NCBI GenBank assembly: GCA_965215005.1 | Contig: CBDCCZ010000058.1 | Coordinates: 1 to 64,000 of the forward strand | Length of the DNA: 64,000 nt | Direction: 5' to 3' | Source: Kofleriaceae bacterium | GTDB lineage: Bacteria; Myxococcota_A; Polyangia; Haliangiales; Haliangiaceae | Shown here: positions 15,355 to 25,867 of the stretch, piece after piece | Layout: each line of letters starts with the position of its first letter | Position numbering within the stretch: the stretch's first letter is position 1 | Notes under the pieces: generated by a model | Seen by the model: only the letters and a program-made list of their open reading frames with translations | Databases searched by the model: none | What the model was told of the DNA's origin: nothing | Program-made: the position numbers and the translations under genes

Positions 15355-15499
15355 AGCAGACCCCGTGCCGAGGGCCATCGCGCACAGGCAGTGGTCTCTG
15401 GAAACCATCTCGGTGCTCGCCGGTGACCTTGAGCAGGAGTCGTTGCTCCCGCTCGGTCAAGGTCCGTGGCGTGCGTGTCGAGTCGGCGTAGTTCGCCAT
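15355..15499 (-). pseudogene. Truncated, frameshifted tyrosine recombinase/integrase 5' fragment
   Basis: MANYADSTRTPRTLTEREQRLLLKVTGEHRDGF, then after a frameshift RDHCLCAMALGTG. This matches the P-x-x-L-T-x-x-E and RD...xTG(LR) box I of tyrosine recombinases. It breaks off before the catalytic Arg. AGGA lies upstream. Confidence 0.65.
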
Positions 15500-15564
15500 T
15501 CCTGGAGATGAAGGCGTGGTGACCCGAACCGCGCAAGGTCGAATCCACGTTCCACGAGGCGGGA

Positions 15565-15855
15565 TCAATCTCCAACCTTGCCCTCAATGTAGTCGGCCAG
15601 CGCTGCCCACCCACGTGCGCTGGTCGATCCGATCCGGGCCAGGGTCGTAGTCACAGCAAACGCGACTGGAAGCTGTTGGTCGTGCCCGGCTTCGGCCAAC
15701 CATGACCAGAGGTCGTCGCGTGTTCTGACGGCGTCATCTCTGCGGTTCTGAGCGAGGTACTCGTTCATAACATCGGACCAAGTTGCCGCGCCGCTGATGT
15801 CCCAGTCCTGATTGAAGTACCCAGCAAAGAACTGGTCGTCGGTCATCTCACGCAC
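15565..15855 (-). CDS. CdiI-type immunity protein (family partnering RNase A-like toxin tips); possibly internally frameshifted
   Basis: QFFAGYFNQDW matches the YF(H/N)QDW signature. An alternative frame near 15610-15655 reads CDYDPGPD..RTW, as expected for this family. Confidence 0.7.
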   Translation of the reverse strand: MREMTDDQFFAGYFNQDWDISGAATWSDVMNEYLAQNRRDDAVRTRDDLWSWLAEAGHDQQLPVAFAVTTTLARIGSTSARGWAALADYIEGKVGD

Positions 15856-16030
15856 TCATGGTGCTGAGATCCCCGTCAGCACGCGATAGGCACCGCTGCC
15901 GTTACCTTGCAGGACGACCCGAACTCGTGTTTTGTGAGTGCACGGCCGGCCTTTGTGAGCGAGCCACCCTTGTGCGGACTCAGCGCATCTTTGAACAGCG
16001 GATTTCCGAGTAGCCTTCTTGCGGCAGCGT
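15856..16030 (-). pseudogene. Chimeric orphan toxin-tip remnant (start of a BECR-like tip fused to the end of an RNase A-like tip)
   Basis: One frame reads AAARRLLGNPLFKDALSPHKGGSLTKAGRALTKH. Another frame continues RVRVVLQGNGSGAYRVLTG immediately before the CdiI-like gene. Confidence 0.6.
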
Positions 16031-16059
16031 AAGCTTGTGCGCGATCGGACCGGAGTCAT

Positions 16060-16536
16060 TCAGCTCCGGTCTTGCCAAAACGTGAGACAAAGCCCCTCTT
16101 CGTCAAATAGATCATGCGCGACCTCGAAGCGGTACAAACGATCAGGAAAGCGCGTACCCAGGGCGAAGCTCCAAAAGTACTGAAGTACGCGGCCAAATGC
16201 CTCGACGAGGTCCTCTTGGTGCACGGCCTGATCGGCACCCGCCAGGAAGAACTCGCCGAGGTTGAGGATGTTGTAGTACCGCTCGACCGTTTCGGGATCG
16301 CCGCCGAAAGGGGTGCTCAGTTGCTCCAGCTTGTCGAGGTCTTCTCCGACGTGTCGATCCCAGAACACGTGGCCCTTCACCTCGACGAACTCGGGTGCGA
16401 GGAAGCCTGCAAGCCCCAGCACCTGTTCAAGGCCGACGTGGTTCGCGACCCAGTCGCCAAACGTCGCTGCTGCTGTGCCTGAGGGGAACTGCTGCATGAC
16501 GCTGCCCGGTAGAATGCCGTCGTACGCCTTCATCAT
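16060..16536 (-). CDS. Putative immunity protein (acidic/aromatic, about 158 aa)
   Basis: Starts just after the stop of an orphan toxin tip. Sequence includes APEFVEVKGHVFW..ERYYN..W..RFPDR..LTFWQ. Position is typical of an immunity gene. Confidence 0.65.
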   Translation of the reverse strand: MMKAYDGILPGSVMQQFPSGTAAATFGDWVANHVGLEQVLGLAGFLAPEFVEVKGHVFWDRHVGEDLDKLEQLSTPFGGDPETVERYYNILNLGEFFLAGADQAVHQEDLVEAFGRVLQYFWSFALGTRFPDRLYRFEVAHDLFDEEGLCLTFWQDRS

Positions 16537-16537
16537 C

Positions 16538-16891
16538 TCACAGCCCCAGAGCATTCAGCACCGCCTGCGGCACTTCGTTGAACTTCAGGTTCGATCCGGT
16601 TCGTGCGAACCACTCTCCACTCGGCGCCTGGCTCCACTGGAACGCCTTGATGCGGCTCGCAGACACGTCATATAGCATCCTGCCTTCCGGCCCGTAGACG
16701 AGCGCGTGGCCGCCATCGGTCACGCTGTAACTGTTTGCTGGCCCGGTTAGTGCTCGTCCCGCCCCACCGCGGCCGACCGTCACGATTCCTTCGTTTCGCG
16801 TCAATCCGTGGAACGTTCTCAGGTCGAGCGTTCTGCCCGCTGTGTTCGTGATGAACCGAGCACCTTCACCTGCACCCCTTGCGGCGTAGTG
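16538..16891 (-). pseudogene. Orphan polymorphic toxin C-terminal tip without its own start
   Basis: The open frame begins directly after the previous stop: HYAARGAGEGARFITNTAGRTLDL..GHALVYGPEGRMLYDVSASRIK..NALGL*. It is followed by an immunity-like gene. Confidence 0.65.
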
Positions 16892-17089
16892 TTAGCCTGA
16901 ACGATTTGCGATCGCCACGAGCTGCTTCTGAAGCGTCTCCGCCGTGTGAGGCTCTACGCCCACGCGCGTCGAAAACTCCCACGCTTCTACTGCCTCAAGG
17001 GCTTCATTGAGCGCATTGATAAGCACGCTCAGCTCAAGTTGGCTCACCTCAAGAGTGATCACGTCACTGTCGTTCCTCATGGCTCTCAT
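16892..17089 (-). CDS. Small putative immunity protein (NALNE..EFSTRVG type)
   Basis: 65 aa helical protein starting 1 nt after the stop of a mini toxin remnant (TGA-C-ATG). Confidence 0.6.
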   Translation of the reverse strand: MRAMRNDSDVITLEVSQLELSVLINALNEALEAVEAWEFSTRVGVEPHTAETLQKQLVAIANRSG

Positions 17090-17090
17090 G

Positions 17091-17177
17091 TCAGCGCAAA
17101 CCTTCGAAGTAGGCACGCCCCCTCGTCGGCCGGAAAGCCGTCCCGAGGTCGCGCGCGTTCCTAGCAGCTGTTCGGGT
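17091..17177 (-). pseudogene. Internally deleted orphan toxin tip (28 codons)
   Basis: In frame directly after the SUKH gene stop: TRTAARNARDLGTAFRPTRGRAYFEGLR*. It has the AAR hinge at its start and a F-x-G-L-R end resembling the main toxin's FIGFLE end. Confidence 0.5.
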
Positions 17178-17618
17178 TTAAGACTGAGAGAGTCCGTAAC
17201 GATCTGCGAAATCTGTCCTCAAAACGCGCACGTACCAGTTTTCGAATGAATCGTACTCTTCGAGCTCCGCATACGTATCCTGATCGAGGACCACCCAAGT
17301 ATTGTCGCTGAGCCGAATTGCCGTCAGAACACTTCCAATGTGCACAATCAGGTATCGCCGGTCCATTCCTCGGCGGTAATGGAACTCATTCACGCTATCC
17401 ACGTCGTCGCCAAGCTGACGATCGCCGAATGGTCCCAGGATCGTCTCCGTCTCGAAGAGTTCTCCGCCGCCGGTATTCTGCCAGAATTGCAACAGTTCGT
17501 CGGGCAGTTCTAATCCACGCTGTCGAAGCCACTCATCCAGTCGTTCTCTTGCCACGGGGCCATTCCAAACAAACAACTCTGGTCGACAGCTCTGGTCCTG
17601 CTGCAACAGCGCGTTCAT
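17178..17618 (-). CDS. SMI1/KNR4 (SUKH) family immunity protein
   Basis: GPVARERLDEW..GLELPDELLQFWQNTGGGELF and C-terminal YDSFENW. Overlaps the Rhs toxin stop (ATGA). Confidence 0.8.
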   Translation of the reverse strand: MNALLQQDQSCRPELFVWNGPVARERLDEWLRQRGLELPDELLQFWQNTGGGELFETETILGPFGDRQLGDDVDSVNEFHYRRGMDRRYLIVHIGSVLTAIRLSDNTWVVLDQDTYAELEEYDSFENWYVRVLRTDFADRYGLSQS

Positions 17619-20600
17619 CGTGTTCTCAACGCTCCCTCCAAAAATCCAATAAAGCGACCGCTTCCAGCATCGATCCGAACACCTTGCCCAGCAGCATTGA
17701 ACACATCAATCGTCCGATTGCCGACTACCGTGCTCGTCGGGTTGGAAAGAATTCCGTTGATCAACCCTTCTGCATTCGCTTGCGTGGGCGCTACACCCTG
17801 GAAGACCGAGGTCGTCCTGTTTCTTTGAGCATGGCCAAGCTTTTTGGCTAGCGCGCGAGCACCAGCCGTCGTCTGTCCAGCTGCGCCTCGCGATGACGCC
17901 AGCGCCGCGTCTACAGTGCTCCGACTAAGCGCAGGCAGAAGCTTCGGTGCTGCCCTTGCGGCTTCTGCTGTCCCGCGGCCGCGGATGGTTCGGAGGGTGG
18001 CGCTGTCGAGGACTTCGACTGCGCGAGTGGGTGCCGCGCGCGGAAGGAATACGGTACCGGCGACTTGGGCGGCTCCCATCAACTCGAGGACGAGCTGAAA
18101 GCCCTCCATGGCTTCGAGCGCGCCGCCGATCTGGTTTTGGAAGTCCACTTCCACGATGCGCAGACCAGAAAGGACACCGGGCGCAGAGCTCTGATTCCAG
18201 CGGGTGGGAACAATGATGTTACCCGGCAATTGCTGATACCCGTAGCCACGGGGCGAGGTCCAGTCGACTTGCTCCGGGGTAATCGTATGGGAGTAGTCGG
18301 CGCCGTCGGTTCCCCGATAGGTTAAGTCATAGCCGCCTCCACTGCGTTTACGAGCGAGGCCTCGGAAGTGGCCTTGACTGAGGAACTGGGCTTGCCTCCA
18401 ATCGCCGTAGCTCGCGTTGGTTCTATAGAAGCTGACGCCGACTTTGTCGAGCCCCCAAGGATCTCGGTAGAGGAGTGGGGCGCTATCAACAAAGGCGTAG
18501 CGGTTGGAGCCACCTGCTAGACCGATGGGATCGCGGCTGAGAAAGCGACCCATGGCAGGCACATAGGTGCGGGCGCGCATGTGCACCAGCCCCAGCGTGG
18601 AGTCGGCGTGATGGCCTTGGAAACCGAACGGATTGCCGATGGCGCTTTCGGGGCGCCGCACACCCGCAGGGTCCAAAATGCGCGTTACGCCGTAGGCGGT
18701 GTAGTCGTACCACTCGAGTGGCTCACCGGTGGAGTCAGTGACGAGGAAGACGGAGCCAATACGGTCTTGGTGCAGATAGGCGTAACTAAGGCGATCGGTG
18801 ACGGCTATCAGTGGCTCATCGAGACCGCTCGACACGAATGCTGTTACAGATTCTCCACGCGCGACGATGGCGAGTTGGTCACCGTCGTATGCGTAGCGGA
18901 CTGGTTCGCCGCCTGGTGCACTCTCCTCCACCACGCGCCCGAGCGCGTCGTAGCGGTAGTATCTGCTGCCCTGCGGCCCGCTCACGCGAATGAGCTGACC
19001 GAATCCGTCGTAGGTATAGGAGGTGGTGCTTTCACTGCGTAGAGCGCCGCGACGATCGTAACGAAGAGGCAAGCCGAGGAAGCTCGTGTACTGATCGGCG
19101 GCACCGATGCCCGGCGTGGTGAAGCCTAGAGGCGATTCATACGAGGTCCAGTTGTGGCGGGCATCGTAGTCGTAGCGCCGGGTGTCGCTGCTATCGAGAT
19201 AACTCTGCACCGCCGCGTTGGCCTCGGCGACCGACGCCGCTGGCTCGACGAGCGTGGTATCGAGAGGCCGTGAGTGATAGCTCTCGGTGAGCAGACGGCC
19301 GCCGACATCGACCTCGTAGGCGACACTGTCGTTTATCCGCTCGCCACTCGTCAGGAGGCGAAACGCGTTCTCAACCCGCGGCGCGCCATCTGCTGCCGGT
19401 GCCCAATCGAATCCGGCGATAGTCTCACCGTTCGCTCGATCGATGGACAAACCGCTCAGACGACCGAGAGCATCATAGTGGTGCAGACGGGTTGTCTCAG
19501 CCGATACGCCGTCGATACGCGCCGTCGATGGACCAAGGCTCTCGTATTCGAACTTGACCTTGGCAGGCAGCTCACTGCCAACGAGCACCTCTACGAGGCG
19601 ACCGAGCGGGTCGTAGTCACGTCTAACGACGTTCCAGGCATAGCTCGACATTTGCGGTAGGCCTCGACCATCGTAGATGTGCTGGATTCCGCTCGCGACC
19701 AGCGAGTTGCTTTCCAAGTATCTGTTGCCGAGAGAGTCATACGTGAACCAAGTTATAATGTCCTCGACCCGCGCCATGGTGGTAAGGGCGTGCCGAGTGA
19801 AACTTCGGATCACGTCGATTGGCGCTCCTTGCGTGTAAAGCTTCGAGATACGTCCGAGCCCATCGTACTCGCGGTAGGTATGGATATCGCCGTCGGTGAT
19901 GAGCTGCGGCCGCGACGTCTCGAACCAATAGTCGACGTCTACGACTCGTCCATCTGGCTCGGTTAGCCGTCGAACGCGGCCGAGCGCGTCGTAGGAGTAT
20001 TGAGTATCGGCGGACCTAGCATTGGCAATGCTTGTACTCTGTGTGAGCCAGTCGTTGCGGCTCCATTCCAGCTCAACACGCTCAATCGACCCATTGCCAT
20101 AGTCAATCTCGCGCCAGCGCTCTCGATCGAAGGCATCGTATCCGACGGTGTGCGCGCCGCGACCAATGGCGGTGTGTGCGGTGAGTCGGCCGCGTGCGTC
20201 GTAGTCCCAGCTGGCAACTTCGACGTCGCGGTCGCCAACCCTGACCAACACCCGCGCCGGGGCTCCCCACTCTGTGAGCTCAGTCGTCTGCGCTAGCCAG
20301 CCGCTCGGAGTTGGGGCGGGCATGCTGCGGAAGGCGCGGCGGCCGCCGTCAGTATATGACGTGCTGATAACCGCGCCCGTCGCTAACTGTTGCCGGACGA
20401 GGCGCCCGGCTCCGTCGGCCTCATAGATAGTGGTGTAGCCCGCATCGTCGGTGACGCTAATGCGGCTGGCGGAAGGCTCGTAGGAGTATTGAGTTGTTGC
20501 TCGACCGTCGCCGATCGCTGCGCCCTGGGCGTTGAAGTGCCAGCGCGCGAGCGAGGTCAATCGTCCGAGCGTGTCGTAGGTGTAGTCGGCCGCTGCAGTC

Positions 20601-23600
20601 AAGTCGCTGGCACCCGGGACCGGACGTCCATAATCTTGCGGACCTCCGTCGTACTCACTCTCCCAGAGGACGTTGCCGAGCTCGTCGTACCCTCGCTGGA
20701 GTTGGGCCGAGCCAGTGGCTGCAACCGCAGCCCGGCCGAAGCCATCATGCCGCACCACGGTCGCGAGACCGTCCTGGTTCACGTAAATTGGCCAGCCATT
20801 GGCGTTGTACTGGACCGTCCGAAGCACTCCCTCGAGCAGTCCGGTAAAGCCTCCTTGGTAGCCCACGACGCACGCGTCGTCCCACGTAGCGCTGCTGACC
20901 TCGGCCACGGCGGCCACGGACGTCATACGCCCCTCGCCATCGTATGAGAACCGTGTTCGGTTGCCGTCTGGAGAGACTTGCTCGAGTAGCCTGCCGTCGG
21001 GCCCATGGCGGTAACAGCTCACGCGCTCTCGAGCGCTCAAGTCGAGCGCGGTTTCGGTGACTGTCTCGACGTTGCCGATGGCATCGTAGGTGACGGATCG
21101 CAGATTCGCGCCGCTTAAGGTCGTCGTCAGCTGACCATCGGGATCGAAGCCGAATCCTGTCGAATCCGTGCGGCCGTTTGCGGTGCGACTGTGAAGCTCC
21201 AATCGGCCGCCGCGCCACTGCCATCGCTCGAGCTCGCCCAGAGGTCCGCGATGGAGCGTGGGACGACCCGCTGCATCAGACTCTAGTTCGGAGATGACGG
21301 GAGAAGGACCATCGGCGTCCTCGATCATCGTTCGCAAGGTGCCAACGCCTTCGTCATAGGCGTAATAGGTTGAGGAACCGTCGGGATCTATCCGCCGTTC
21401 CGGCATGCCTCTGGCGGGGCCATCGCCGCCGACGAGCTGAAACTCTGTCTTGTCACCGAGCCCGCTCGTCACCTCAGTAACGTTGCCGCGCTCGTCGTAG
21501 CGGCGCTGCTCCAAGATCGCGTCGTCGTCGCCGGGACGGCGCGGATCGAAGATCTTCTGGAGCCGATGAGGAAAGCCTGTGTACGAATAGCGCCAGATAA
21601 TCGGCTCCCTCGAGCCCACGGCATTCCTCACCGGATATAACGAACTCTGCAGCAGATTACCTGCGGCGTCGTACTGCATGCAAACGCGGTCTTTGAGCGG
21701 CTGCTCGACCGCGGTAAGCTGTCCGAGTTGATCATAGTTATATGAGCGCACGGATCCGGTGCTGGCGTTGACGGTTCGCAGAGTCCGGCCCTTCTCATCG
21801 AAGTAGTATGTCCACGCGACGCCGTGGAAGTCGACGAGTACCGTCGCTCGCTCTGGCTTGGGTCCGGGTGCGAGAGGACCACGGCCTCGCCGTGCGCCGG
21901 TTCGCTCACCGAAGCACGATGGAACTTGTTCTTCGGGCTTATCCAGTGGCAGCTGCTCGAGTAGGTCGCGGAACCAATCATCCCAGCCGAACAGACTATG
22001 GAACACGAAAACAGGCACATCCAATTCATCTGCGTTCGCGGGCGGTCGCAAAAGCGGAGACACTGCGGCAGCATGAAGTGCGGTCAACAAGCTGGTAAGC
22101 TCGGCCGCACCACTGGGAGCCGTTTCCGCATCGTACCTCCCTCGTGTGTACGTTTCTCTTAGCACCATCGGTGCTCGCCGGGGCATGAGGCCGGACGCTT
22201 CGAAGTGATCGACGGCGGCGAAGGCAGAGGGGCCTTCGCTGAGATATCGTCTCTTGAGGCTTGCGTCATTTACTGCGGTGGCAAGCGGCGTGAGAACCAA
22301 CTCGCCACTGCATGCGTCGGTGGGCGTGAATCTATACTCTTCGTAATACTCAACAGAGAAGGGCTTCTTACACGAGCCCTCAGATACGTGGAGCACCCGC
22401 CGCGGCACGCCGCACATGTAGACTTGATTGCCAGTGGCCCCTACCAGCGACACGTGAGGCGCAGCCTCCATTACGTCAGTCAAACTCCCGTGACTGCCAG
22501 TCATGAGATAGCTGCCATCGCTGAGTGGCGCGATGTGTAGCGTGCCGGGCCCGGCGGTTACGGTGTACGATGAGGCGCTGGGTGCTACATCAGGCGGGGA
22601 AATTGATTTTACCGGCTGCAGCAACAAGCCATTGACGACCCTTCGTGTCCGCAAGAGCGTCGGCGGGATCGGAGCTTCGAAGGAGGAAGAGGAGGACTCC
22701 CCCGTTAGAAGAACACACGGCTCCTCAAACTCCAGCAGCGCATCGCCCCACGGCACAAACGTTCCTGCGGATGGCGTGCTCGTGAAATCGTTGCACGAGC
22801 CGCAGATGCTGACAGATTCGAACTCTTCGAGACTCTCGACAAGCTCGGAAGCCGGGCCATCGGTCGGCACACGAGTATATCCAGCTGCCTCGCTTCCCAA
22901 GTCACGATAGTGCATCGCGACCTGGTGATCGCCATACGTTTGACTGATGATCGCGTCGAAGCTCGGGTCTTCGAGGGCGGCGCCATACTCGTTGGTCAGA
23001 TAGAGGTCGCCATTGCCGTCGTAAACGCGCACTAGATTGAAATTTAGGTCCTTGAGGTACCCATACTTAGGTCCTTGTATCGGACCGCGGCCATGGGAGT
23101 CGGCGATGCAGCCGTCGACGCAGCCGGCCTCGCACGCACCCTGCAGGTCAAGGCTGTCGCAGTAGCTCCCGCATTCGCCAGTATGGCAAACATCATTGCA
23201 AGTAGTGTCGCAGGTGGGAACGCACGAAGAAGCGCAGGTATCGACGCACTGAGCGGTGCATTGCGATGGGCAGCTCGCGGTGAGGGTAGGAATGCAGCCC
23301 TCGAGAACAGCCACTTCGTCAACGGTGGAGGCGCAATTTTTTACCCTCTCGTAATCCTCCGTGCCCGGTGGAGGTGGCTGCCAGGTCGGGAACCCAAGCA
23401 AGTTCAAGCAGCCCTCGAGCGACCTACTGTCTGCGCAGTCGTTGCCGTTCGGAACACCGTAAAACGCGGCACGGCAATCCTCCTCGCAAGAGTGGCCTTC
23501 GTTGCAGCTACCAGCACCGCACTCATCACCTTCGCTACAACATAGTACGTGATTTTGATTGCATAGATCTAGCCAGCCATTGCGCGTGCGAGAGAAGTCG

Positions 23601-25528
23601 CAGCGCACATCGCAGAACAACCCAAAGCCGCATCCGATGCCGGTGCCGATGCACTCGAGCAAGTCGACGTTGACGTTCCACGGCATGATATGAATATCGA
23701 CGTAGGCTTCGGGGTACTCTCCAAATCCTGCTCGGTCTAAACATAGGCCTGTGCCCGCTGCACTGCTCGCGCCATCGACGTCGGCATTCTCATCGAAGCC
23801 AACCGAAACGCAACTAACAATGGCGTTGCAAGCATCCGATGGTCGCCCGCACGTCCTATTGCAGCTCTCGCAAATGTCATCGAAGCCGTTGGACCAGAGG
23901 GCGTCGCAGGTGCCACGGATATCGTTGCGATAGTCGCTCGATAAGCATTCTTGAGTGCATTGCTCCTCACACCCGACTTCTCCGCCTTCTCCGGCCCGGC
24001 AGGCGGTGTCACATTGTGCGTCGCATTCTTTGCCGCACTCTGTGCCGCACACACTGCATTCATTCATGCAGCTCCAGGTGGCCAGCTGCACGGCCTCGTC
24101 GCAGGCGCCGCCAGCGTCGCAGGAAGAAGAGGAGGGTGCGCAAGTCATCTCGCAGGCGGACCGCAGGGATCCCTCTGGCACCCAGTCACCTCCGGTTCGG
24201 GAGGCGCTGTAATCATATTCGTATGTCTCGGTTCGCTCGGTTGCGTCAGTTGCCTGTCTAAGGCCGCCATTGTCATCGTAGACGTAGGTTGCAAATAGCC
24301 CAGTGGAGACGTCAATCACCTGTTCCAGGCGATCGGCATCATCGTAATGATACTCAATGGTGCGGCCGACGGAATCGGTGACGGTTTGCAAGCGCCAGTC
24401 ATCGGCGCTGTTGGTGAGTTCCCACGCTAGCTGGAGGCCAACACCGTTGGCATCTACTAAGCTTACTAGCAGACCCCGGTCGTCGAAGTTCCGCACGACG
24501 CCATCCGGAGCGGACAACGCCCAGGTAAGCGCCTCCCCACGGCGTGTACCGCGCAGGATGAGAGGTATCCCGCTGGTGTTCTCGTAGAGAATCTCTCTTT
24601 CCTGTGCGATCGTCTCGCGGAACCGTAGCGTCGTTCCTTCGCCGGTTAAAAATAGAAGTTCGGGGCCGCAGGATGCAGAAGATTCGCGGTCGGATGCGGC
24701 AAGTACAGCGTGCTTGGCGGCTAGAAGGCTCCGCGGTCCGCGACCCGCCTCGGTTGCTCCGAGGTTTGGAAGTTGCTCCAATGGTCCTTGGGAAACGATG
24801 ACTGAGGGCTCTGGCAGTCGCAGGAGCCGCTGGTTATACGAGTGATCCCAGCCGCGGCCGAGGGGGCCATCATAGTCGATACGACTGCGATACATTCTTC
24901 GGTGTTCATAAGAGATACCGAAACCGGGCAAGGCGAGATCCGTGTGACGGATATAGAATTCTCCAGTCGCTGGATTGACGGGATCGACGAGATTGCTGGC
25001 GCTTTCGGTGTCATTGCTGGTTCCGTCTGCATTGGGAACGCGCGGCGGACCGGTATCCTGTGGCACCTCCACGCCCGCGAGTGCTTGGCGGACATCGGGT
25101 CGTTCACGACGAGCAGTCGCTTCTGCGCGAACCTGCGCGGGAAGGCTTTCCTGATTGTAGATTTCGTCGATATCGCGCGCGAAGCGGTCGAAGAACGCCT
25201 GAGTAGGCTCGGCGCCAGGCAGCCAGTCGAAGGTGATTTGAACGCCTCGCATCACCTCGCGAATGACCTCGAAAGCGACATTCGATCCTGGGCTCTCCAA
25301 GAGAACCGGCTTGATATTGCCGTCGTAGCCTTCAAATCCGCCGAGCGCTGGCTCCTCTAGGCGACAGAAGAGCTGCCCGGTGCTGACCCCGTCTCTAGTT
25401 GGCAGCTCCGTGCAAACCTGTTCCTGCGCGTAGGCTGTGCTCGCCGGCCAGAGCAGTACCGCGCCAGTGACGGCTATCAATGCAAGTAGCGTTCGTAACG
25501 ACGACAGAACCATCATGGACATCCTCAT
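17615..25528 (-). CDS. Giant secreted RHS/YD-repeat polymorphic toxin with Cys-rich insert and BECR-like RNase tip
   Basis: Signal peptide (..LLALIAVTGAVLLWPASTAYA|QE); DUF6531-like DPVNPATGEF..GPLGRGWDHSY; many YD repeats; core end RFLSRDPIG..NRYAF..PLLYRDPWGL (DPWGL at 18449-18463); ~277-aa C-terminus ending GQGVRIDAGSGRFIGFLE. Start uncertain (ATGs at 25513-25528). Confidence 0.9.
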   Translation of the reverse strand: MRMSMMVLSSLRTLLALIAVTGAVLLWPASTAYAQEQVCTELPTRDGVSTGQLFCRLEEPALGGFEGYDGNIKPVLLESPGSNVAFEVIREVMRGVQITFDWLPGAEPTQAFFDRFARDIDEIYNQESLPAQVRAEATARRERPDVRQALAGVEVPQDTGPPRVPNADGTSNDTESASNLVDPVNPATGEFYIRHTDLALPGFGISYEHRRMYRSRIDYDGPLGRGWDHSYNQRLLRLPEPSVIVSQGPLEQLPNLGATEAGRGPRSLLAAKHAVLAASDRESSASCGPELLFLTGEGTTLRFRETIAQEREILYENTSGIPLILRGTRRGEALTWALSAPDGVVRNFDDRGLLVSLVDANGVGLQLAWELTNSADDWRLQTVTDSVGRTIEYHYDDADRLEQVIDVSTGLFATYVYDDNGGLRQATDATERTETYEYDYSASRTGGDWVPEGSLRSACEMTCAPSSSSCDAGGACDEAVQLATWSCMNECSVCGTECGKECDAQCDTACRAGEGGEVGCEEQCTQECLSSDYRNDIRGTCDALWSNGFDDICESCNRTCGRPSDACNAIVSCVSVGFDENADVDGASSAAGTGLCLDRAGFGEYPEAYVDIHIMPWNVNVDLLECIGTGIGCGFGLFCDVRCDFSRTRNGWLDLCNQNHVLCCSEGDECGAGSCNEGHSCEEDCRAAFYGVPNGNDCADSRSLEGCLNLLGFPTWQPPPPGTEDYERVKNCASTVDEVAVLEGCIPTLTASCPSQCTAQCVDTCASSCVPTCDTTCNDVCHTGECGSYCDSLDLQGACEAGCVDGCIADSHGRGPIQGPKYGYLKDLNFNLVRVYDGNGDLYLTNEYGAALEDPSFDAIISQTYGDHQVAMHYRDLGSEAAGYTRVPTDGPASELVESLEEFESVSICGSCNDFTSTPSAGTFVPWGDALLEFEEPCVLLTGESSSSSFEAPIPPTLLRTRRVVNGLLLQPVKSISPPDVAPSASSYTVTAGPGTLHIAPLSDGSYLMTGSHGSLTDVMEAAPHVSLVGATGNQVYMCGVPRRVLHVSEGSCKKPFSVEYYEEYRFTPTDACSGELVLTPLATAVNDASLKRRYLSEGPSAFAAVDHFEASGLMPRRAPMVLRETYTRGRYDAETAPSGAAELTSLLTALHAAAVSPLLRPPANADELDVPVFVFHSLFGWDDWFRDLLEQLPLDKPEEQVPSCFGERTGARRGRGPLAPGPKPERATVLVDFHGVAWTYYFDEKGRTLRTVNASTGSVRSYNYDQLGQLTAVEQPLKDRVCMQYDAAGNLLQSSLYPVRNAVGSREPIIWRYSYTGFPHRLQKIFDPRRPGDDDAILEQRRYDERGNVTEVTSGLGDKTEFQLVGGDGPARGMPERRIDPDGSSTYYAYDEGVGTLRTMIEDADGPSPVISELESDAAGRPTLHRGPLGELERWQWRGGRLELHSRTANGRTDSTGFGFDPDGQLTTTLSGANLRSVTYDAIGNVETVTETALDLSARERVSCYRHGPDGRLLEQVSPDGNRTRFSYDGEGRMTSVAAVAEVSSATWDDACVVGYQGGFTGLLEGVLRTVQYNANGWPIYVNQDGLATVVRHDGFGRAAVAATGSAQLQRGYDELGNVLWESEYDGGPQDYGRPVPGASDLTAAADYTYDTLGRLTSLARWHFNAQGAAIGDGRATTQYSYEPSASRISVTDDAGYTTIYEADGAGRLVRQQLATGAVISTSYTDGGRRAFRSMPAPTPSGWLAQTTELTEWGAPARVLVRVGDRDVEVASWDYDARGRLTAHTAIGRGAHTVGYDAFDRERWREIDYGNGSIERVELEWSRNDWLTQSTSIANARSADTQYSYDALGRVRRLTEPDGRVVDVDYWFETSRPQLITDGDIHTYREYDGLGRISKLYTQGAPIDVIRSFTRHALTTMARVEDIITWFTYDSLGNRYLESNSLVASGIQHIYDGRGLPQMSSYAWNVVRRDYDPLGRLVEVLVGSELPAKVKFEYESLGPSTARIDGVSAETTRLHHYDALGRLSGLSIDRANGETIAGFDWAPAADGAPRVENAFRLLTSGERINDSVAYEVDVGGRLLTESYHSRPLDTTLVEPAASVAEANAAVQSYLDSSDTRRYDYDARHNWTSYESPLGFTTPGIGAADQYTSFLGLPLRYDRRGALRSESTTSYTYDGFGQLIRVSGPQGSRYYRYDALGRVVEESAPGGEPVRYAYDGDQLAIVARGESVTAFVSSGLDEPLIAVTDRLSYAYLHQDRIGSVFLVTDSTGEPLEWYDYTAYGVTRILDPAGVRRPESAIGNPFGFQGHHADSTLGLVHMRARTYVPAMGRFLSRDPIGLAGGSNRYAFVDSAPLLYRDPWGLDKVGVSFYRTNASYGDWRQAQFLSQGHFRGLARKRSGGGYDLTYRGTDGADYSHTITPEQVDWTSPRGYGYQQLPGNIIVPTRWNQSSAPGVLSGLRIVEVDFQNQIGGALEAMEGFQLVLELMGAAQVAGTVFLPRAAPTRAVEVLDSATLRTIRGRGTAEAARAAPKLLPALSRSTVDAALASSRGAAGQTTAGARALAKKLGHAQRNRTTSVFQGVAPTQANAEGLINGILSNPTSTVVGNRTIDVFNAAGQGVRIDAGSGRFIGFLEGALRTR

Positions 25529-25867
25529 CCCCCCGAGCAAGTCGCCCTCACGAGCGGTTCGCCTCACTTGCATAGGAAGATGCACGGCGATGAGCGCCGG
25601 CATCGAGCTCAACGAGCGCCTTCATTCGAGGAAGTCGGCGTCCGGTTTCTGCTTCTATAATCTACGGAATGCAGGGAGGACAAGTGCCGCGTGACGGTAG
25701 AAACGGGCAATTCTGTGAACAGATTGGCACTCAGCTCTTCCGACGACCCGACGAGTCTCTCATCGCTCATCGGGCGGCAGCTGTGCTGCAACGCGGCCAA
25801 GCGGGCACTCTGAGGCGAGCCTTGGCGCTCCTGGAAATCGCGGGGCGGACCGGCTAGGGTCGCGGCG

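Follow-up and report, generated by a model that had tools for sequence, protein, structure and literature searches.

We analysed an Rhs toxin locus in a 64,000-nucleotide stretch of DNA from a Kofleriaceae bacterium (assembly GCA_965215005.1, contig CBDCCZ010000058.1, positions 1 to 64,000), hereafter called the window, and found that its toxic C-terminal domains (tips), together with those of related loci, are joined to their carriers at a 12-base hinge with the consensus GCCGCARRGGGG, encoding Ala-Ala-[R/G/E/K]-Gly. Judged from sequence comparison, this hinge is a real DNA-level crossover site, and a linked tyrosine recombinase probably inserts units of a tip and its immunity gene there in frame, so that the old tip is displaced. 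The site, its fixation at the DNA level, the crossover inside it, the common pool of tips and the linkage to the recombinase gene could be established by these comparisons; the action of the recombinase on the hinge and the right boundary of the unit are what we infer from them.

The crossover point was located with two kinds of gene pairs. In all five pairs with the same tip on unrelated carriers, homology began at the hinge: the 60 bases before it matched at 13–24 positions, which is random identity, and the match set in from the first bases of the hinge, with a one-base slip in or beside its G run in two pairs. Among seven pairs with the same carrier, six matched at 52–59 of 60 positions before the hinge and up to base 10–12 of it, and diverged beyond, with 19–24 matches in 60 after base 12; the seventh was too gapped upstream for scoring. 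Two of the six (at C31 and C37/C46, the C labels denoting other loci of the window's genome, G000) also showed a few differences within the 10–20 bases before the hinge. These breakpoints argue against RecA-type homologous recombination as the route of the hinge swaps. The original prediction that new units enter at a very short hinge, not through Rhs-core homology, is thus supported, since related toxins switch inside the 12 bases. At L091:3509 and L111, a one-base slip at or in the G run shifts the frame of the tip, which could reflect an error of assembly, an imprecise crossover or phase variation. L091 and L099, otherwise different carriers, have about 30 bases in common directly before the hinge.

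The hinge is also fixed at the codon level. With the motif defined by amino acids only, GCC GCA RRG was used in 11 of 15 Ala-Ala-[RGEK]-[GA] motifs lying 85–135 codons from the end of an open reading frame (ORF), compared with 3 of the 567 such motifs in the long ORFs of this genome. Toxin domains are often preceded by Ala/Gly-rich linkers, and hinge-like residues occur in 8 of 26 homologues of the window's active tip, as would be expected if the motif were a protein constraint, namely a linker or a cleavage site, and the localisation of the swaps only apparent. This explanation does not fit the codon counts, and the tolerated residues R, G, E and K are alike in codon pattern, not in chemistry. 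Given the codon evidence it appears largely refuted, and we find it scarcely credible.

The array in the window consists of the Rhs gene followed by three tips without a carrier (orphans), each with an immunity gene, and all cassettes are co-oriented. Its features are listed below.
17615..25612, minus strand: full-length Rhs toxin gene of 2665 codons, with DUF6531 and RHS repeats; start codon uncertain
18463-18449, minus strand: DPWGL motif of the Rhs gene
17951..17962, minus strand: in-gene hinge GCCGCAAGGGCA, read as Ala-Ala-Arg-Ala, the fusion point of carrier and tip; consensus taken from relatives
17615..17962, minus strand: tip 0, the active tip, 115 aa, with homologues at Rhs C-termini
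17178..17618, minus strand: immunity 0, SMI1/KNR4 (SUKH-1), family match with E 1.7e-5
17091..17168, minus strand: orphan 1, a degenerate hinge GCTGCTAGG (17168-17160) with a tip remnant of 25 codons
16892..17089, minus strand: presumed immunity 1, 62–65 aa, no family match, role assigned by position
16538..16885, minus strand: orphan 2, hinge GCCGCAAGGGGT (16885-16874) with an intact tip of 115 codons, no start codon of its own
16060..16536, minus strand: presumed immunity 2, 158 aa, no family match, role assigned by position
15856..16025, minus strand: orphan 3, hinge GCCGCAAGA (16025-16017) with a chimeric tip and a deletion joint near 15926
15565..15855, minus strand: immunity 3, CdiI_2, the last gene of the array, 68% identical to the immunity protein of locus L119
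15508..15538, minus strand: conserved pre-recombinase site, with CCTTGCG, a 17-base spacing, CTTCAT, 8 bases and ATG
15362..15499, minus strand: 5′ remnant of a small tyrosine recombinase, about 46 codons, with one extra base

The locus has RHS/YD repeats, the PxxxxDPxGL core end, a variable tip and a downstream immunity gene, the hallmarks of an Rhs polymorphic toxin locus. As originally described, four copies of the motif lie on the minus strand (GCCGCAAGGG at 17962-17953 and again at 16885-16876, GCTGCTAGG at 17168-17160 and GCCGCAAGA at 16025-16017). The in-gene copy is about 162 codons downstream of DPWGL, the orphan copies are separated from the stop codon in front of them by 9, 6 and 34 bases, and neither a YD repeat nor DPxGL was found in any orphan. 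The orphans have only 9–13 bases in common with the Rhs core, and the DPxGL-bearing 3′ core homology was not found in them. Enrichment of GCYGCWAGR, proposed as a check, was confirmed: its background is 7.2e-5 per base per strand in this genome, and among 5000 composition-matched shuffles of the array none held four copies and one held three, a figure that overstates the enrichment because the motif was picked after the fact.

The claim of three orphan tip/immunity cassettes held for cassette 2, which is whole, but not fully for the others, the tip of cassette 1 being reduced to 25 codons and that of cassette 3 being a chimera. Likewise, the toxin homologues expected for the orphan frames were found in toxin position for orphan 2, while two of the three orphans are broken. 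The homologues of tip 2 (n=5, 73–86% identity) form the C-termini of Rhs and Hint toxins, and the alignment with the closest of them begins at an Ala-Ala-Glu-Gly hinge in the same place; an atlas search with this tip gave only scores below 0.85. In the chimera, the first 33 codons resemble toxin group P0137 (E 2e-4), and the tail, in a different frame, resembles an RNase-A-like CdiA-CT group (P0136; L119). Of the 26 homologues of tip 0, many are carried by Rhs proteins; one with hinge residues in register comes from a record named Micrococcales. By its features tip 0 weakly resembles colicin D/Ntox35 nucleases, which serves as a lead only. The older tips would have been pushed downstream in the order of insertion. 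No circle, joint or alternative tip was seen in the only run that covers the region, one set of near-identical assembled contigs, possibly the source itself. Between DUF6531 and the RHS repeats, the Rhs protein also contains a long insert rich in cysteine (window 23400-24300, minus strand).

Elsewhere in the same genome, in-gene hinges or hinge-started orphans were observed at C27:18488 (+), C31:21871 and 22858 (+) and C37:15624 (−), with further hinge loci at C1 near 189309 (+) and C46 near 43866 (−). Among its 12 Rhs ends, six have an in-frame hinge with at most two mismatches and one has a hinge within three, and matches with two or three mismatches also arise by chance elsewhere in Rhs genes. 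Relatives that lack the recombinase (L002-L020, L060-L062) showed no hinge array in the examined flanks of their Rhs cores. The linker preceding the window's tip gave weak matches in genomes G011 and G021, which were set aside as unrelated to the hinge.

A second type of carrier was found at two loci, in which a 77-residue leader takes the place of Rhs. By eye, the leader looks like a signal peptide plus a short linker and appears to be exported; it has no Pfam or NCBIfam name. Members of the family include L092:8-238, L127/L183, L181 and L182 (proteins P0128-P0199, about 170–200 aa). A search with the leader yielded 72 representatives, 64 of which were anchored at the hinge. The third hinge residue was G in 27, R in 19, E in 14 and K in 2, i.e. 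in 62 of 64 exactly one of the residues of the four RRG codons. The small-carrier tips of at least 70 aa (n=47) fall into 42 unrelated groups fused at the hinge. A Pfam domain follows directly after the hinge in 12 of 45 scanned small carriers, from 11 different toxin families, with a Hint domain in two. Tips common to this family and to Rhs genes, this genome included, were also detected. A viral collection contained no relative of the small carrier or of the recombinase.

The recombinase remnant lies at the end of the originally described range and had been overlooked there. It starts 65 bases after the CdiI_2 stop, shows 84% DNA identity to the 5′ end of its relatives and is the only copy of the close clade found in this assembly. 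The proposal that a site-specific or microhomology route would be needed is supported, and a candidate enzyme adjoins the array. Intact relatives are proteins of 203 aa that match PF00589 and consist of the catalytic domain from the start, with no N-terminal core-binding domain. Their catalytic R, K, H-x-x-R, H and Y align with XerA/XerD, the best profile and structure-sequence matches are XerA/XerC/XerD, and all NCBIfam matches are below cutoff. The homologues form a tight group (about 15 clusters, 78–100%) within a large family at 57–69%. This close group is uncommon, occurring at 8 places in 7 of 401 genomes of the class (window included, at least 82% DNA identity). Named records for its loci are Myxococcota, and the hosts are soil or aquatic myxobacteria-like microbes; among plasmids, recombinase matches reached only about 33%.

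To detect the hinge, we scanned 400–1700 bases upstream of recombinase starts in loci of at least 900 bases, with near-duplicates dropped and nine shorter close loci omitted. Of the 24 close loci, 14 have a hinge with at most one mismatch (leaving out the window, 13 of 23; expected, 0.75), as against 1 of the 34 distant ones; the close loci are not independent, several coming from one genome or having a common tip. In 12 of the 13 close loci the hinge opens a frame of 98–127 codons, and L091 is off by one G. By eye, the recombinase mostly lies 40–75 bases after a small gene that is preceded by a toxin-like C-terminus, nearly always a different one (L063, L040, L082, L078, L079, L085, L087, L090-L092, L096, L098, L105, L110-L112, L114-L121 and L127). 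The toxin region is decayed or hit by an insertion sequence (IS) at L126, L138 and L197, L139 has no toxin pair, and L094 and L095 were too short or outside this reading. The tips are predicted to be toxins mostly on the basis of gene architecture; Pfam names that of L063 (Ntox24) and 2 of 11 other hinge-started tips. In the stretches inspected by eye, nine distant recombinase loci had no toxin pair; the remaining distant loci were covered by the hinge scan alone. In the recombinase tree, the 13 rows labelled as toxin-side form a single branch (support 81/98); the label was set by hand, and toxin adjacency was confirmed for the rows other than L094 and L138.

At L083/L104, a reverse-strand fragment, which we take to be like RNA 2′-phosphotransferase (KptA), lies between the immunity gene and the recombinase. 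It was rejected as a shufflon partner, being out of frame with the inverse motif by eye. The distant recombinases of L081 and L084 lie in islands behind tRNA-like sequence, where the place taken by toxin pairs in the close clade is filled by other cargo.

This linkage bears on the idea that the hinge is the true site-specific target of another enzyme, for example one reading a single-stranded hairpin, and that the recombinase beside it is a passenger. A CC-GCAA-GG stem-loop can be drawn from GCCGCAAGG, the two ends of the unit have poor overlap homology, and there are hinge loci without a recombinase, namely C1, C27, C31 and C37 of this genome, L181 and L182. Set against this are the strong clade-specific linkage of hinge and recombinase, the disruption of a simple hairpin by the RR variation and the absence of a different conserved enzyme gene near the hinge loci in the stretches examined, and we regard another enzyme as unlikely. 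A FimB/FimE-like invertase, flipping a tip-immunity segment between inverted 6-base motifs as an on/off switch with arrays as by-products, would agree with the inverted motifs flanking the unit, with a 203-aa enzyme devoid of an N-terminal core-binding domain, and with the matches of this enzyme to two ‘tyrosine-type DNA invertase’ models, which span the full length although they stay below cutoff. However, no inverted tip-immunity unit was present in any locus examined, the window cassettes are co-oriented and the best matches are XerA/XerC/XerD, which makes such a switch very improbable.

We then return to the linked recombinase and to the right boundary of the unit that it would move. The CCTTGCG before the recombinase is the hinge core GCAAGG in inverted form. 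Just past the immunity stop, TTGC recurs in 27 of 33 close loci with constant spacing to the recombinase start, the consensus being CCTTGCCATCCC. Two other orphans of this genome, behind the Rhs loci of C27 and C31, show a stop codon, 8–11 bases and then CTTGCCGCAAGGGG, which is the pre-recombinase inverted motif joined to the hinge via the common GCC; at C31, the front unit spans the stretch from the in-gene hinge to this joint. These junctions suggest that the moving unit may be GCARRG-tip-immunity-CYTTGC, inserted at GCC, and the site before the recombinase may be a recombination half-site and/or a promoter. In two recombinase-bearing genomes, TTGCCGCARRGG gave nine matches and no orphan tip.

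The mechanism that we consider probable would operate as follows. Carriers of several unrelated kinds have the 12-base hinge in frame, just before the toxic domain. The unit would comprise a tip and its immunity gene, with GCARRG as the left bound and CYTTGC, a few bases past the immunity stop, as the right bound. The 203-aa tyrosine recombinase, encoded directly behind the units on a mobile element, would recombine the unit into the hinge by a crossover in or beside the common GCC, so that the reading frame would be kept and the carrier would gain a new tip and immunity gene. The former tip, now at a bare hinge, would be pushed downstream and decay, its immunity gene still being useful. In the window, at least three such insertions would have occurred, and the recombinase would have been truncated since. 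The moving piece could be either a tip-immunity circle, as in integrons, or the whole recombinase element, later dropping out.

As for this element, about 370 conserved bases follow the recombinase on its 3′ side, and then, by eye, DUF1016-like, toxin-antitoxin, primase-like or IS genes. The conserved stretch (L096:1520-1890 and its equivalents in L078, L079, L090, L092 and L094) holds repeated GTG(T/C/G)ACA-like words and has no Rfam match; it could be a set of accessory binding sites or an origin. An Rfam scan of three recombinase loci gave nothing. L096 (5406 bases) has contig ends overlapping by 119 bases, indicating a circular or tandem unit, and contains an Rhs-core fragment, hinge, tip, immunity gene, intact recombinase, DUF1016-like gene and toxin-antitoxin pair. 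L087:5300-12434 and L083:8652-12423 hold tandem arrangements of a carrier fragment, hinge, different tip, immunity gene and recombinase 5′ fragment, with a primase-like fragment between the tandem units of L087.

Such tandem units bring in host recombination, in which homology on one side and the hinge as microhomology on the other side would allow homology-facilitated illegitimate recombination; the recombinase would be the integrase of a toxin-cargo element, its conserved gene serving as the homologous anchor. The tandem units of L087 have long carrier homology (96–97% over 1.1 kb), recombinase 5′ fragments of ragged length lie behind many tip/immunity pairs, some swaps are off-hinge, and this route has been proposed for Vibrio arrays (PMC5361080). 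However, it leaves unexplained the same 12 bases with rare codons on unrelated carriers and the exact joints of immunity-side motif and hinge at the orphans of two loci, and the same-tip pairs have no upstream homology at all. We hold host recombination to be possible but rather doubtful.

A number of observations weigh against insertion by the linked recombinase. The hinge and the right-hand site have only GCC in common, and tyrosine recombinases usually need an overlap of 6–8 bases; a triplet-only crossover would be closer to integron integrase or Tn916-type enzymes than to Cre/Xer. Some swaps in this genome bypass the hinge: 5 of its 12 Rhs ends have no convincing hinge, and two Rhs paralogues (C37) switch tips off-hinge. 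Hinge-like residues are absent from 18 of the 26 tip 0 homologues, with seven having hinge residues in register. The assembly (92.8% complete) contains no intact close-clade recombinase, and many close-clade copies are 5′ fragments. Of the 24 close loci, 10 lack a hinge with at most one mismatch, two of them having in-frame copies with two mismatches and the others being decayed or cut, and no recombinase lies behind the small carriers of L181 and L182.

The right boundary and the element's far end add to these points. TTGC also stands at that distance before 11 of 36 distant recombinases, which have no hinge, so the inverted motif is possibly a promoter or an autoregulatory box; its geometry is promoter-like, and a sigma-70 scan of the site gave nothing. 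The three orphan joints of the window keep the inverse motif poorly (acaGC, tacGC, gctGC) and are, as we read them, worn versions of the full joint. In the 401 genomes, exact CTTGCCGCAAGGGG had 28 matches compared with about 36 for a control pattern (counted by eye from a table), of which only the two of this genome resemble orphan tips; at this background level, the full junction is not widespread in the sample. The hinge was absent from the 20 kb past the recombinase in G652 and G019, hence no far-end junction was found there, and the search gave no far end of the element, empty site or circle.

The system was compared with known ones. In known orphans of Rhs, CdiA and MafB, core homology including DPxGL is retained (in Salmonella, 522 bp at 95%), and homologous recombination brings about their exchange (PMC4436062; PMC3967940; bioRxiv 10.1101/2025.05.08.652813). 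Like these modules, the system has a carrier, a variable tip and an immunity gene, with displaced pairs downstream; unlike them, the hinge orphans keep 9–12 bases, the changeover to the tip comes about 160 codons after DPxGL, and the hinge spans unrelated carriers and has a linked recombinase. For the T6SS arrays of Vibrio cholerae, homology-facilitated illegitimate recombination was proposed and a likeness to integrons noted, with no evidence of an integrase (PMC5361080). New modules there also enter at the front and push old immunity genes back (PMC5361080), whereas the hinge system has a fixed site and a candidate enzyme. The rAID-1 arrays of Bacteroidales carry a 5′ XerD-family gene followed by immunity genes only, and likewise tie a tyrosine recombinase to an interbacterial-conflict array with short intergenic motifs (bioRxiv 10.1101/471110). 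In contrast to rAID-1, the recombinase of the hinge system lies 3′ and is devoid of an N-terminal domain, and each unit brings a toxin domain that is fused in frame into a carrier gene.

In integrons (IntI, attI, attC), a triplet is all that the short core has in common with the inverse core behind the last stop codon. The hinge system resembles them in front insertion with displacement and in a core and inverse core with a triplet in common, and differs in that the enzyme is downstream and co-oriented and the cargo is a translational fusion. The IntI model TIGR02249 gave 41 bits against a cutoff of 265, over 50 residues only, and no attC hairpin was found between the cassettes, where 6–34 bases separate stop and hinge with no matching inverted repeats. 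In the R64 shufflon (Rci, pilV), a tyrosine recombinase gene ends an array that changes a protein C-terminus, and FimB/FimE are 200-aa enzymes of the catalytic domain only; both invert fixed sets of segments. The position of the recombinase at the array end is as in the shufflon, and its single catalytic domain is as in FimB/FimE; unlike in both, the units all point the same way, include immunity genes and are drawn from a large common pool. The invertase models gave 47 and 39 bits, below their cutoffs of 221 and 222. By the features tested, the locus is a bona fide Rhs toxin locus and not a classical orphan array, integron, rAID or shufflon. No recombinase-linked in-frame hinge for toxin tips was found in the literature searched by titles and abstract starts, subscription journals aside.

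Taken as a whole, the sequences point to a dedicated toxin-swapping machine rather than ordinary recombination, a variant of polymorphic-toxin tip displacement and possibly a new kind of element, which would work like an integron for protein domains. It is about an even question whether this amounts to a mobile ‘toxin-tip integron’, whose catalytic-domain-only recombinase would splice pooled units of tip and immunity gene into any hinge-bearing carrier; with equal reserve, its carriers would be giant Rhs proteins, Hint toxins and 77-residue exported leaders, and its pool of units would be community-wide. Units may also be ferried from carrier to carrier by the element, which would collect them at one site and release them at another.

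These results address a long-standing gap, namely how polymorphic toxins acquire new tips from incoming DNA that lacks homology on one side, for which the literature invokes homologous or illegitimate recombination and states that no integrase is known (PMC5361080). The analysis supplies a site of 12 bases together with candidates for the right boundary and the enzyme, by which the question becomes reducible to a plasmid assay. If true, this would be a natural recombinase that swaps protein domains in frame with very short sites, and the hinge would offer a means of retrieving dozens of antibacterial domains, so far uncharacterised, along with the immunity genes that belong to them. For the bacteria themselves, a toxin would be re-armed in one step while the old immunity genes are archived.

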